Positions 15,183 to 21,133 of a stretch of 64,000 nt of DNA are shown piece by piece. The notes below the pieces were generated by a model that did no database searches, had not been told where the DNA came from, and was given only the letters and a program-made list of their open reading frames with translations. The DNA is from an uncultured Acidobacteriota bacterium (GTDB lineage Bacteria > Acidobacteriota > Polarisedimenticolia > J045), in the NCBI GenBank assembly GCA_963702425.1, contig CAVPCQ010000035.1:11781-75780 (forward strand). Direction: 5' to 3'. How positions within the stretch are numbered: the stretch's first letter is position 1; each line of letters starts with the position of its first letter. Position numbers and translations under genes: made by a program.

Positions 15183-16995
15183 CTAGCCGGCGCCGCCGCC
15201 GCCGCCGCCCGAGCCGCCGCCGCCGCCGCCGGAGGCGCCGCCGCCTGCGCCCACGCCGGAGCTCTGGGCCGAAGCGACGATTCCCGCGAACGACCCGAGG
15301 GCCGTGCCGAGGCCGCCTGCGCCGCCCGCTTCACCGGACCCGTCGCCGCCCGCGATCGCCCCCGCGTACCAGCCGTAGTAGCCGGCGGCCTGCTCGCGCG
15401 GCAGGCGGCCGACGAGCGTGGCGAACTCTTTCGAGACCCCGAGCCCGATCGCCAGCGCGAACGCGGGTCCCCCACTCGCCCGGCGCGAAGCGCGGTGCGA
15501 GCCCCGCCTTCGCCTCCTGCTTCACCCGCGCGGCCCACGCCTTCCAGGCGTCGAACTCGCGCTGACCCTCGAGCGTGCGGCGCCGGAAGGCGACGGTGAA
15601 GACCGCGACCACGACGCCGCCGATCAACGCGGGGAGCGCGGGGGCAGGAGCGCGGGCCCAGGCGATCAGCACGGCCGCGGTCGTGAACAGCAGGGCGGCG
15701 ATCCCGAGGTTGGCGGCGATCGCTCCGGTCGGGCGGGGCTCGAACGCCGCGTGGCCGGCGTCGGTCTCGTCCACCAGCGCCTTCCAGCCCGAGAACCAGC
15801 TCGTGATGCGCTCGCCCGAACGGCGCGCGGCACCCGGCAGGTCGGCGAGGTCGAGTTCCTGGCCCGACGATCCGAGGCGGCGCAGGAAGTCCAGCAGGTC
15901 GGACTCGAACGGCACCAGCCGATCGGAGGTGCGCGGCGCGAGGCGCACCCAGTAGTGCGGCGTGCTGTGGTGCCAGCTCACGTCGGCGCGGTCCTCGACG
16001 ATCGACAGGTGGCCGCGCCGCGCGAGGTCGGCAATCGTCGCCCCGAGCGCCCGCGCGTCGACCGTTCCGTGCACGAGGCGCGCCACGAGCGCCGGCGGCC
16101 GGTCGGACGGGCACTCGCCGGGCGCCTGCGTCGGCGTCACCGCGTGGGGCCACGCGCTCCTGCGGAACAGCGCGAACGACCCCGCCAGGCCGAGCGCCGC
16201 GAGCACACTGCCGATGATCAGCGCCGGGCGGCGGCGCGCGGCGACTTCCCTGGCCTGGGCCCGCGCCCGGTTCGCTTCGTCGGCCCAGCGCCCTTCCTCG
16301 GCCAGGATCGCGTCCAGCCGCGGCCCGTCCGCGCTCGCGGCGAGGCCGGGCACGGCCGCCGGCGGGAAGACCGCGCGTCCCTCGAAGAAGGTGCGTCGCG
16401 GCAGCGGGGCAACGTCGAACCGAACGCTCCCGTCGGGCTCGATCCGGACCGCGCCGTAGAGCGGGCCGTGGGCCCAGGCGCGCAGCTCGGACGCCGCCAC
16501 CGGCTCGGAGAAGCGCAGGCGCGCGGTCACGGCGCCGATCGTCCGGTCCCATTCGTCGCCGACGAACTGGTGGTAGAACTGCGCCACCTCGGGGCCGCGC
16601 GTCACCGCGCCGGTGAAGGTGTACGAGAGCGTGAAGGCCCGGCGCTCGTCCCGGGCCCGGTAGTACCAGGTGACACGGACGCTGTCCGGCTTCCGCTCGA
16701 CGCGGAAGGTCCCCGGCTCCTCGCCGTCGCCGGGCGCGTAGGGGACGCCGGCCTCCGCGACCTCGAACCGGTCGACCGACTGTCCCGGAGCGAGCGGGAT
16801 GTCGCGGGTCGCGTAGCGGAAGCTGCCGCGGTAGTCGTAGACGATCGTCTCGACGAAGGCCGCGCGGCCGTCGGGCAGCACGAGCGCGTCGACATCGACC
16901 TGCGGCACGCTGTGGCGCTTGTCGGCGAGCGCGGGCGACACCGCGGCGAGCAGCGTCGCCGCCGCCATCGCCCCCAGGACCAACTGTCGTCTCAT
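15183..16995 (-). CDS. DUF2207 family membrane protein (frameshift near 15460)
   Basis: Signal peptide, ETIVYDY, AWAHGP, ATIADLARRGHL, TM helices, and a Gly-rich tail SGGGGGGSGGGGGGAG ending at TAG 15183 in a shifted frame. Confidence 0.85.
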
Positions 16996-17041
16996 CGGGG
17001 TCCTCGTGGTCGAGCGGGCCGACACCTTGGGCGGCCAGCCC

Positions 17042-17389
17042 TCAGAACAGTTCGGCGTACGCGCTGTCGCTGAAGCCGACGATCAGCGTCTTGCCGACCC
17101 GGAGCGTCGGCGCGCGCAGGTTGCCGGTCGGCCCGAGCAGCACGGCGAGCAGCTCGTCGTCGGTCGGCCGGTCCTTCCGGAGGTCGAAGGCGACGATCCT
17201 GGCGCCCCGGGCGGCGACCACCCGGTCGACGCCGCGGGCCAGCGCCAGCGCCTCCTTGCGGCCCAGCTTCGTCCGGCCAGCGTCGACCTCTTCCTCGACC
17301 TTCACACCGCGCGGCTCAAGGAACCCCTGAGCCTTCTGACAGCTCGTTCATCCCTTGCGCCGGTAGTACCAGTCGATCGTGTAGGCCAT
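17042..17389 (-). CDS. ArsC/Spx-like thioredoxin-fold selenoprotein (UxxC)
   Basis: MAYTIDWYYRRKG-TGA-TSCQKAQGFL...LLGPTGNLRAPTLRVGKTLIVGF is continuous in one frame through TGA at 17348-17350. GGAAGGGG RBS upstream. Confidence 0.9.
17313..17333 (-). promoter_or_regulatory. Putative bacterial SECIS hairpin
   Basis: GGCUCAGGG-GUU-CCUUGAGCC stem-loop starts 14 nt after the in-frame UGA and has a G/U apical loop. Confidence 0.7.
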
Positions 17390-17412
17390 GGGCATCCCCT
17401 TCCCGAACGATC

Positions 17413-17847
17413 TTACCCCCGCGAAAGGGGCAGCCCGGCGGCCTCCAGGAAGCTGACGAGCGAGCGGTCCGCACCGGACACGTGACCGGCGAGCCAGTCG
17501 CGCAGCAGGTGGATGCTGTCGAGCGTCCATCGGGTGACGCCGACCGCGTGGCGCCGCTTGAGGTCCTCCAGCAGTTCGATCGCGTGGTCGTGCTCCCGCG
17601 CATGCGTCTCGCGCTGCGGGAACCGGTGCCGCTCCATCAATAGCTGCTCGGACAGGAAATGGGCGCGGAGGTACTCGATCAGGCGGCCCACCGCCGCGTC
17701 GACTTCCGCCGGCTCGCGCCCCGCGGCGACGGCCTCGGCGACCGCGTCGATCAACTCGAACTGGACCCTGTGTTCCTCGTCGAGCTCGTCGTGGCCAAGC
17801 GCGGGCACGCGACGGTCGGGAGCGGCGGATGAGGGCTGAGGCACCAT
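17413..17847 (-). CDS. Single-domain bacteriohemerythrin
   Basis: LGHDELDEEH, YLRAHFLSEQLLM, THAREH and WLAGHVSGAD give a complete set of di-iron ligands. GGAGG RBS. Confidence 0.9.
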   Translation of the reverse strand: MVPQPSSAAPDRRVPALGHDELDEEHRVQFELIDAVAEAVAAGREPAEVDAAVGRLIEYLRAHFLSEQLLMERHRFPQRETHAREHDHAIELLEDLKRRHAVGVTRWTLDSIHLLRDWLAGHVSGADRSLVSFLEAAGLPLSRG

Positions 17848-17940
17848 CGGAACCTCCTGTCTTACCTGATTTCGATAGCGAGTATGCACCCGTCCGCCGG
17901 CGCGCGCGAACCGTGCGGCCGCCCGCTCGCCCATGGGAAG

Positions 17941-18963
17941 ATGCCGCTCGTGAAAGCGATCGTGATCACCCGCCCGGGGCCGCCCGAGGCGCTGGCCTTT
18001 CGCGACCTGCCCGATCCGGCGCCGGGTCCCGGCGAACTGCTCGTCGCCGTTCGCGCGACGGCGGTCAACCGGGCCGACCTGCTGCAGCGGCGCGGCCTCT
18101 ACCCCGCGCCACCGGGCTCGCCGGCCGACATCCCGGGGCTCGAGTTCGCCGGGGAGGTGCTGGGGGGCGATCCTGCCGGAACGGGCTTCCGGGCGGGCGA
18201 CCGCGTGATGGGGATCCTCGGCGGCGGCGGCTACGCGGACCGGCTCGTCGTGCCGGCCGGGCAGTGCCTCCCGGTCCCGCCGTCGCTCTCCTTCGCCGAG
18301 GCGGCGGCGATCCCGGAGACCTTCCTGACCGCCTTCGACGCGCTGGTGCTGCAGGCCGGGCTCGACGCCGGGGAAGTGCTGCTGGTGACCGCAGCCGCGT
18401 CGGGCGTCGGCACCGCGGCCGCGCAGGTGGCGCGGGAGGTCGGCGCGCTCGCGATCGGCACCTTGCGCACCGCCGCCAAGCGCGCGCGGGTCGAGCAGCT
18501 CGACCTCGGCTTCGCCGCGCTGCTCGACGCCGGGTCTGCCGATCTCGCGGCGCAGCTCGCGGCCACGTCCGGCGGGCGCGGCGTGAACGTCGTGCTCGAC
18601 CTCGTCGGCGCCGCCAGTTGGCCGCTGGCGCTCGACGCGCTGGCGCCGCGCGGGCGGATCGTCGCGGTCGGCACGCTGTCCGGCGCGCGGATCCAGCTCG
18701 ACCTGGCGACGCTGATGCGCCGGCGCGCGACGCTGATCGGGACCGTCCTGCGCTCGCGGCCGGCGGCCGAGAAGGCGGCGCTGACGAGCGCCTTCGCGGA
18801 GCGGATGCTGCCGGCGCTGGCGGCCGGGCGGCTGCGCCCGGTCGTCGACCGGGTGATGCCGTTGGCCGAGGCGGCCGCGGCGCACGCCCTGCTCGAGCGA
18901 AACGAGACGCTCGGGAAGGTCGTCCTGCTGGTCGGATCGCCGGGTAGCGACGCTACTCGCTGA
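17941..18963 (+). CDS. NAD(P)H-quinone oxidoreductase (zeta-crystallin/PIG3, MDR family)
   Basis: VNRADLLQRRGLYP, IPGLEFAG, AAIPETFLTA, AAASGVG, GTVLRSR and GKVVL. Confidence 0.92.
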   Translation: MPLVKAIVITRPGPPEALAFRDLPDPAPGPGELLVAVRATAVNRADLLQRRGLYPAPPGSPADIPGLEFAGEVLGGDPAGTGFRAGDRVMGILGGGGYADRLVVPAGQCLPVPPSLSFAEAAAIPETFLTAFDALVLQAGLDAGEVLLVTAAASGVGTAAAQVAREVGALAIGTLRTAAKRARVEQLDLGFAALLDAGSADLAAQLAATSGGRGVNVVLDLVGAASWPLALDALAPRGRIVAVGTLSGARIQLDLATLMRRRATLIGTVLRSRPAAEKAALTSAFAERMLPALAAGRLRPVVDRVMPLAEAAAAHALLERNETLGKVVLLVGSPGSDATR

Positions 18964-19836: not shown

Positions 19837-21133
19837 ATGGCCTACAAGACGATCCAGGTTCCGGAAGGCGACAAGATCACCCTCAAGGACGGCAAGCTCA
19901 CCGTGACCGACCGGCCGATTCTCCCGTTCATCGAGGGCGACGGCACCGGCCGCGACATCTGGCGGGCCTCGGTCCGCGTGCTCGACGCCGCGGTCGCCAA
20001 AGCCTACGGCGGCAAGAAGAAGATCGCCTGGATGGAAGTGCACGCCGGCGAGAAGGCCTTCAACAAGTTCAACACCTGGCTCCCCGACGAGACGGTCGAC
20101 GCCTTCCGCGAGTACCTGGTCGGGATCAAGGGGCCGCTGACGACGCCGATCGGCGGCGGGATCCGCTCGCTCAACGTGGCGCTGCGGCAACTTCTCGACC
20201 TGTACGTCTGCCTGCGCCCGGTACGCTGGTTCGAGGGGGTCCCCTCGCCGGTGAAGCACCCCGAGAAGGTCAACATGGTGATCTTCCGCGAGAACACGGA
20301 GGACATCTACGCCGGGATCGAGTTCGAGTCCGGCACCCCGGAGCTGAAGAAGGTCCGGGACTTCCTCGCCCAGAGCTTCCCCGACATGTTCAAGAAGATC
20401 CGCTTCCCCGACAGCGGTGGCGATCGGCATCAAACCGGTCTCGCGCGAGGGGACCGAGCGGCTGGTCCGCGCGGCGATCCGGTACGCCCTCGAGCACAAG
20501 CGCAAGAGCGTCACCTTCGTGCACAAGGGCAACATCATGAAGTTCACCGAAGGGGCGTTCCGCAACTGGGGCTACGAGCTGGCCGAGCGCGAGTTCGGCG
20601 ACCGCGTCTACACCTGGGAGCAGTGGGAGCGGACCAAGAAGGACAGGAGCGAAGAGGCGGCCAACGCCGAGCAAAAGGCCGCGCTGGGGGCCGGCCGGTT
20701 GCTGATCAAGGACGCGATCGCGGACATCACGCTGCAGCAGGTCCTGACCCGTCCCGACGAGTTCGACGTCGTCGCGACGCTGAACCTGAACGGCGACTAC
20801 CTCTCCGACGCCCTGGCCGCGCAGGTCGGTGGAATCGGGATCGCGCCGGGCGGCAACATCAACTACCTCACCGGCCACGCGATCTTCGAGGCGACGCACG
20901 GCACGGCCCCCAAGTACGCCGACCTCGACCGGGTCAATCCGGGCTCGGTCGTCCTGTCGGGCGAGATGATGCTGCGCCACCTCGGCTGGGGCGAGGCGGC
21001 CGACCGGGTGATCAAGGGTCTCGACGGGGCGATCGCGGCGAAGACCGTGACCTACGACTTCGCGCGGCAGATGACCGGCGCGAAGGAGATCAAGTGCTCG
21101 GAGTTCGGTGACGCGGTGATCGCGCACATGTGA
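19837..21133 (+). CDS. icd: NADP-dependent isocitrate dehydrogenase (frameshift near 20415)
   Basis: [53 protein letters not shown] and [11 protein letters not shown]. Confidence 0.96.

Follow-up and report, generated by a model that had tools for sequence, protein, structure and literature searches.

The window, by which we mean the whole 64,000-nucleotide stretch of DNA analysed here (positions 11781-75780 of contig C35), carries on its minus strand an intact gene of the NCBIfam family NF041106. We are highly confident that its in-frame UGA at codon 14 specifies selenocysteine (Sec) by means of a hairpin lying within the reading frame; the product is most likely an oxidoreductase that would act through U14 and C17. 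The gene is not new, since NF041106 is curated and listed in the selenoprotein literature; it is an ordinary member of a selenoprotein family that has already been described. The source assembly comprises 5.1 Mb in 42 contigs and is 91% complete with 5.85% contamination. The gene and its boundaries are located as follows.

17045..17389, minus strand: coding sequence of the ArsC-family selenoprotein, 115 aa with U14-x-x-C17, from translation with TGA as U, matches to NF041106 and PF03960, and full-length alignment to Cys-form homologues
17348..17350, minus strand: Sec codon UGA (codon 14), aligned with the first Cys of CxxC in the Cys homologues
17042..17044, minus strand: true stop, also TGA, with no SECIS behind it; homologue ends fall within a few residues
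17396..17404, minus strand: purine-rich, putative Shine-Dalgarno-like element GGGAAGGGG, 6 nt before the ATG at 17389

The reading frame on the minus strand opens with ATG at 17389-17387 and runs through 13 sense codons to the TGA at 17350-17348, after which 101 sense codons lead to the TGA at 17044-17042. When the first TGA is read as U, residues 13-17 of the product are G-U-T-S-C. A table-11 listing of open reading frames breaks the gene into two fragments, 17348..17530 and 17042..17305. An earlier note on this DNA had proposed that the two join into a single protein of 115 aa across TGA 17348-17350, and that this TGA occupies the first Cys position of a CxxC motif; its coordinates proved right throughout, and alignment with the Cys homologues places the TGA at exactly that Cys. 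The start is set at 17389 because the ATG of the upstream fragment, at 17530, falls within the adjoining hemerythrin gene, in another frame. A second in-frame ATG at 17395-17393 lies too near GGGAAGGGG and is absent in the nearest relative.

The read-through protein was searched against 41 genomes, namely its own and those of 40 relatives. Matches were observed in 19, each of which holds exactly one TGA; these include all four other genomes of the same genus and 12 of 22 additional genomes from the same family. Of the 19 loci, all but the weakest (L041, E 6.4e-4) were recovered by local tblastn, leaving 18. The TGA is found at the same codon in all 18 extracted loci, and the 13 codons upstream of it are conserved in frame, with the pattern I/V-D-W-Y-Y-x-R-x-G/S, in every one of them. 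These tallies and the corresponding alignment (A2) include genome G034 with its locus L034; its omission brings the counts to 18 of 40 genomes and 17 of 17 loci and alters no conclusion.

A wider scan, limited to one genome per species, yielded at least 597 loci with a relative of the protein, and the 80 best were analysed. The aligned codon in these 80 is TGA in 68, TGC in eight and TGT in four, so that the alternation of Cys and TGA codons, for which the earlier note had advised a search among homologues, occurs at precisely codon 14. Most of the 80 best of these loci are titled Planctomycetota (Gemmataceae, Pirellulaceae, Phycisphaerae), and a few carry the names of Eisenbacteria, Methylomirabilis or still other groups; the two closest among them, with 86% and 77% identity, are titled Acidobacteriota/Acidobacteria. 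We also note that two loci, L031 (genome G013) and L054, read U-T-S-S and have Ser in place of the resolving Cys but retain both the TGA and the hairpin, a possible monoselenol variant.

At the protein level, a word-indexed search proposed 3145 candidates, of which 3073 matched at E <= 0.001. The closest of the best 120 proteins are calls of 87 aa, including P0002, which is 99% identical and comes from the window's own contig, and many others among the 120 are calls of 103 aa that begin right after the aligned Sec position. The full-length proteins of 115-119 aa in the same set carry C-x-x-C (alignment A1). The comparison of the 87-aa and 103-aa calls with the full-length Cys proteins indicates that gene callers truncate the Sec forms, as had been anticipated in the earlier note; P0002 is such a stub, and so are many of its homologues. 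Some NCBI records (P0016, P0105, P0110) are already named "ArsC family (seleno)protein".

The public gene calls, which give exactly the 87-aa product (P0002 and similar), are what would be expected if the TGA were a true stop and the locus a decayed gene or two unrelated small open reading frames, from which only the 87-aa piece beginning at GTG 17305, or nothing, is made. The hairpin, which is not significant when considered alone, also fits such a reading. However, the 13 codons upstream of the TGA, conserved in frame at 18 of 18 loci, match the N-terminus of the Cys forms, and retention of one and the same TGA in 68 of 80 species is not what a pseudogene would show. Furthermore, the 87-aa piece would have lost helix 1 of the fold together with strand 1 and the redox motif. 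We regard termination at this codon as very improbable.

An error of sequencing or assembly, with TGC or TGT as the real codon, could be suspected in a metagenome-type assembly of 42 contigs, the more so as the window includes an isocitrate dehydrogenase gene (icd) with a probable frameshift. This is set against the presence of TGA at the same codon in all four same-genus genomes and 14 further relatives, and against the SECIS hairpin that accompanies the TGA. Contigs assembled independently provide another view of the codon. Parts of the stretch occur in 20 public metagenome runs from 14 studies, none of which contains half or more of the sampled words and none of which is on record as RNA. 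The contigs, rather than the reads, of four runs were compared with the stretch, and those of three span the TGA: X1, an 861-base record (16830-17690); X2 (17321-17471); and X3 (17309-17599 and 17309-17403). Among the differences listed for the X1, X2 and X3 contigs, none lies between 17307 and 17382, while the same contigs differ at 17383 and 17394. The earlier note had named reads with TGC or TGT at this codon as one observation that would speak against it, and the contigs of three independent runs give no listed difference there. This agreement is modest evidence against an assembly error, in accord with the conservation, and we consider such an error extremely unlikely.

The icd gene itself (19837-21133, plus strand) is split between two frames, with a conserved continuation in the next frame. 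The split points to a single-base indel near 20412-20420, due either to an assembly error or to a pseudogene.

The selenoprotein reading of the TGA relies on an RNA element just downstream of it:

17313..17333, minus strand: SECIS hairpin with 5' arm 17333-17325, GUU loop 17324-17322 and 3' arm 17321-17313, from folding, covariation and the contrast between TGA and Cys forms

The hairpin has the sequence GGCUCAGGG-GUU-CCUUGAGCC and, in agreement with the earlier note, consists of 9 bp and begins 14 nt downstream of the TGA, at 17333-17313. Counted from the U of the UGA, the GUU apical loop starts at a distance of 26 nt. The two features by which a bacterial SECIS is recognised, a stem-loop just past the UGA and a G in the apical loop, are both present. 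In this one sequence the hairpin is within the range of chance: the 66-nt stretch folds with a z-score of -1.14, and 34 of 200 shuffles do equally well or better; of the 972 TGA triplets on both strands of the 64-kb window, eight are followed at a like distance by a hairpin of 9 bp or more. Reliance was therefore placed on comparative evidence, which lifts the hairpin above chance because the same combination of TGA and hairpin recurs in relatives and is absent from Cys forms.

For the comparison, a hairpin was defined as at least six consecutive pairs, G-U allowed, closing a loop of 3-5 nt that starts 22-30 nt from the U of the codon or its equivalent. Among the 80 best species-level loci, 67 of the 68 TGA forms have such a hairpin of 6 bp or more, versus none of the 12 Cys forms. 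The loop starts 25-30 nt from the U in the TGA forms, and exactly at position 26 in 62 of the 67; its sequence is GUU in 60, AGUU in four, GUA in two and CUG in one. The sole TGA form that does not possess such a hairpin, L107, folds otherwise, and the longest stem in the Cys forms (TGC or TGT) has four pairs.

Covariation was assessed with an alignment of 17 sequences of relatives, of which 16 rows are distinct. The 9-pair stem is paired in 88.9% of the cells, as opposed to 30.6-59.7% in controls with the 3' arm slid by 1-3 columns, and changes on both sides are observed in four of the nine stem pairs. The closing pair, for example, changes from G-C to A-U, where the replacement of Gly by Glu is compensated by the synonymous change of UUC to UUU. 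None of 500 shuffles matches the observed pairing or covariation score, a result inflated by the kinship of the sequences; the slid control and the contrast between TGA and Cys forms are the stronger arguments for that reason. Compensatory changes thus maintain the hairpin put forward in the earlier note, and it occurs in the TGA forms only.

Because the stem coincides with the codons for A-Q-G-F-L, its conservation is in part that of the protein. The peptide over the stem is A/S/T-Q-G/E-F/Y-L in the Sec forms and is mostly not found in the Cys forms. One Cys form, L075, keeps the peptide A-Q-G-F-L with no stem in the RNA, which indicates that the stem is selected at the RNA level, apart from the constraint on the protein. 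The locus L075 looks like a recent conversion of Sec to Cys, or the reverse.

The genome possesses the machinery that Sec insertion requires. The gene for tRNA-Sec is situated at C39:71334-71429, where Rfam RF01852 scores 70.8 bits (gathering score 47); ARAGORN names the same gene tRNA-SeC, with the anticodon tca. Profile searches of the genome identified selA (507.3 bits; cut-off 267.9), selB (313.2 bits; cut-off 242.25) and selD (340.1 bits; cut-off 125), the last with one in-frame TGA. The earlier note had called for a search for this machinery, and tRNA-Sec, selA, selB and selD all turned up above curated cut-offs. These genes reside on contigs C39 and C16 and not on the contig of the window; given this separation and the 5.85% contamination of the assembly, they could in principle belong to another organism.

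The selD gene (C16:54490-55428; locus L018, with the TGA at locus position 1531) encodes C-A-G-U-A-S-K-L at its in-frame TGA, which is followed by a strong stem-loop, so selD is a selenoprotein gene itself. Its SECIS has another shape, with a long stem directly after the UGA, and for that reason no motif is shared between the selD and the ArsC-like SECIS.

A frame left open by near-cognate read-through with Trp or Cys, or by reassignment of TGA throughout the genome, would look equally open, and nothing specific speaks for decoding of this kind. The same gene ends on a TGA, at 17044-17042, and the genome holds a dedicated tRNA-Sec together with selA, selB and selD. In addition, the hairpin is tied to TGA forms only, and the position is that of the catalytic Cys of CxxC, a classic site of exchange between Sec and Cys. 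Decoding of the UGA as anything other than Sec is accordingly judged extremely unlikely.

We infer the insertion of Sec at residue 14 from the established bacterial Sec pathway. SelD would make selenophosphate, and SelA would convert Ser-tRNA(Sec). At the UGA of codon 14, the ribosome would encounter SelB with Sec-tRNA(Sec), held by the mRNA hairpin at 17333-17313, and selenocysteine would be inserted instead of termination. In the proposed reaction of the protein, U14 would attack an oxidised substrate and C17 would resolve the adduct to yield a U14-C17 selenenylsulfide; a reductant would then regenerate the oxidised U14-C17 protein.

The product matches NF041106 well above the cut-off, with 140.6 bits (E 2.5e-41; cut-off 85) over profile positions 1-107 of 107, and the N-terminal U/C-x-x-C with alternation of Sec and Cys that marks the family is observed as U14-T-S-C17 (alignments A1 and A3). 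The next best family, TIGR01617 (Spx/MgsR), scores 30.4 bits, below its cut-off of 75.05; for the Spx equivalogs, whose cut-offs are 152 and 123, the scores are 20.1 and 19.9 bits, respectively. The arsC equivalog TIGR00014 is not among the seven NCBIfam families found at E <= 0.01. In Pfam, ArsC (PF03960) is matched with 24.5 bits (E 3.5e-5), barely over the gathering threshold of 24, and Glutaredoxin with 19.8 bits, below its cut-off of 22.9. In support of the ArsC match, a profile search of the PDB gave 2m46, a putative arsenate reductase, at E 1.2e-8, Spx structures at 1.3e-7 to 4.6e-5 and YffB (1rw1) at 8.2e-5; in this search, U14 is aligned with the first Cys of the Spx CxxC.

The AlphaFold model, built from a 40-row alignment, has a mean pLDDT of 93.9 and a pTM of 0.86. 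Its predicted elements are strand 7-10, helix 15-27, strand 34-36, helix 44-52 and strands 56-61 and 64-69, followed by helix 77-84, strands 95-98 and 101-106, and helix 108-114. The model places U14 and C17 at the N-terminal end of helix 1, where proteins of thioredoxin fold canonically carry their redox residues. Strand 95-98 is directly preceded by the invariant R92-A93-P94, which we take to be the site where the thioredoxin fold has its cis-proline loop. A Foldseek search of the PDB gave no match at E <= 0.001; the best hits were Spx, a Bacteroides ArsC-family protein and YffB, with TM ~0.53 and E values of 1.9e-3 or weaker. VIA-align against 48,161 representatives ranked YffB (Z 7.8), the Spx-like 3l78 (Z 7.5), 3gkx (Z 7.4), the putative ArsC 3rdw (Z 7.4; 88 residues, 2.6 A) and NrdH (Z 7.2) ahead of glutaredoxins and GST N-domains (Z 5-7). 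All of these Z values are below 8, middling by the scale of the tool; they are consistent with the placement by sequence and add nothing to it. The product is predicted to be a 115-aa protein of thioredoxin/glutaredoxin fold within the ArsC/Spx/YffB superfamily, and is most likely a selenol/thiol oxidoreductase, as argued from its motif and fold.

Comparison with the known members of this superfamily defines the product further. The fold and the CxxC at the start of helix 1 are common to Spx/MgsR (1z3e, 3gfk, 6ghb) and YffB (1rw1). In contrast to Spx/MgsR, the present protein falls far below the Spx cut-offs, has Sec for the first Cys and comes from another taxon. Glutaredoxin and NrdH have a dithiol-type motif as well, and ~73 residues of their core (beta-alpha-beta ... 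beta-beta-alpha) can be superposed on the present protein at 2.5-3.0 A (Z 6.8-7.2), whereas the Pfam Glutaredoxin score is below threshold and an insert of ~55 residues lies here between strands 2 and 3, as in the ArsC superfamily.

After 2m46, Spx gives the best sequence matches and the best Foldseek matches among solved structures, and has its CxxC at the same position, which would suit a redox-switched regulator of the Spx/MgsR type that binds RNA polymerase. The family scores argue otherwise, at 30.4 bits for TIGR01617 relative to 75.05 and ~20 bits for the Spx equivalogs relative to 123-152. Spx is a Firmicutes system, whereas members of NF041106 occur in Acidobacteriota and Planctomycetota. 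Between strands 2 and 3, moreover, the model has a helix, a beta-hairpin and a helix, an insert that presumably differs from the helical Spx subdomain. A regulatory role of this type appears decidedly improbable.

The neighbourhood of the selenoprotein gene includes the following genes.

17413-17850, minus strand: hemerythrin-domain gene (PF01814, E 2.7e-10), 23 nt upstream of the selenoprotein start
15331-17025: DUF2207 membrane protein gene, downstream of the selenoprotein gene
17884-18963: zinc-type dehydrogenase/quinone-oxidoreductase-like gene, divergent from the hemerythrin gene

The hemerythrin and selenoprotein genes may be co-transcribed; a scan of 16900-18000 for promoters and terminators returned zero of each and is uninformative on the transcription unit. 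The hemerythrin neighbour is common only to the closest related genome, and the DUF2207 and quinone-oxidoreductase-like neighbours are common only within the genus. The survey of neighbours took the nearest open reading frame on each side by a crude longest-first pick at 78 loci and covered 150 of the 154 frames selected, 55 of the 150 having no Pfam match. Among the 78 loci, no partner is conserved across the family, and pairings are local to clades: Rieske and HGLS genes in 6-7 related planctomycete assemblies, ThiG and DUF1499 genes in 3-4, and a hexapeptide transferase gene in four. At L061, L066, L079, L084, L085 and L087 (and L069), the selenoprotein gene is located between the genes of a small Rieske [2Fe-2S] ferredoxin and of an HGLS-family dioxygenase/decarboxylase. 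A globin gene adjoins the homologue in two planctomycete loci, L047 and L090.

None of the 150 nearest-neighbour frames matches an arsenic-resistance family or thioredoxin reductase in Pfam, and no gene of an ars operon (arsR, arsB/acr3, arsA, arsD) is the nearest frame on either side of the window gene. This bears on a genuine glutaredoxin-coupled arsenate reductase (ArsC) with Sec as its nucleophile, a function to which the Pfam ArsC match, the name 'arsenate reductase-like' given to homologues in the sources and the presence of the putative ArsC 3rdw among the best structural matches would lend themselves. Against it, in addition to the flanking frames, stands the lack of a TIGR00014 match at E <= 0.01. 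Plasmid-type ArsC uses a single Cys, and the CxxC dithiol motif is of the Spx/Grx type. Such an ArsC is quite unlikely; no support was found for arsenate reduction or for Spx-like regulation.

A more specific proposal can be formulated for the family. Rather than an arsenate reductase or a regulator of the Spx type, NF041106 might constitute a separate glutaredoxin-like redox protein with the Sec form as the norm (68 of the 80 best loci) and with a SECIS inside the reading frame that fixes A/S/T-Q-G/E-F-L directly behind the active site, and in this acidobacterial lineage it might work with the hemerythrin of the upstream gene as an oxygen- or peroxide-linked redox pair. Taken as a whole, we put this forward as a speculation that is unlikely to hold in full.

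Selenoproteins of the ArsC superfamily have been described before, as the earlier note stated. The Sargasso Sea survey reports "arsenate reductase" selenoproteins with UxxS, represented by 14 sequences (PMC1088965), and a bacterial comparison of 2006 reports "ArsC-like" selenoproteins, for instance in Desulfotalea psychrophila (PMC1794560). The GOS survey of 2008 separates "Arsenate reductase (ArsC) 1", with UxxS, from "Arsenate reductase 2" (cd03032), with UxxC and 42 Sec sequences (PMC2398784). A 2026 review lists NF041106 as 'Arsenate reductase-like protein, UxxC', with a citation of the GOS survey, and says that such functions "remain largely uncharacterized" (PMC13188914); the worked example in the BSepDB paper, also of 2026, is an arsenate reductase-like protein (PMC13326102). 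The phylum names Acidobacteriota and Planctomycetota are absent from the main text of PMC13188914 and of PMC13326102.

The proteins named 'ArsC-like' or 'arsenate reductase (UxxS)' by Zhang et al. in 2005 and 2006 (PMC1088965, PMC1794560) share with the window protein the ArsC superfamily, an N-terminal catalytic Sec and a SECIS inside the reading frame. The 'ArsC 1' proteins of the Sargasso and GOS surveys carry UxxS in contrast to the UxxC found here. Compared with NF041106 (ArsC_rel_Se_1), the window protein has the same length, N-terminal U/CxxC, Cys/Sec alternation and type of hairpin as the other members, and nothing material differs. It is a member from Acidobacteriota, most of the 80 best loci being titled Planctomycetota, and its gene has the hemerythrin gene 23 nt upstream, an arrangement found otherwise only in the nearest relative.

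It is a minor descriptive observation that the Sec form prevails among the best loci (68 of 80) in Planctomycetota and Acidobacteriota. For annotation, the value lies in the replacement of the 87-aa call by a selenoprotein of 115 aa. The locus also offers a clean example for the recognition of a bacterial selenoprotein, with the hairpin strictly tied to the TGA forms. As the public calls are truncated, the redox centre of this family is missing from the catalogues for Acidobacteriota and Planctomycetota.
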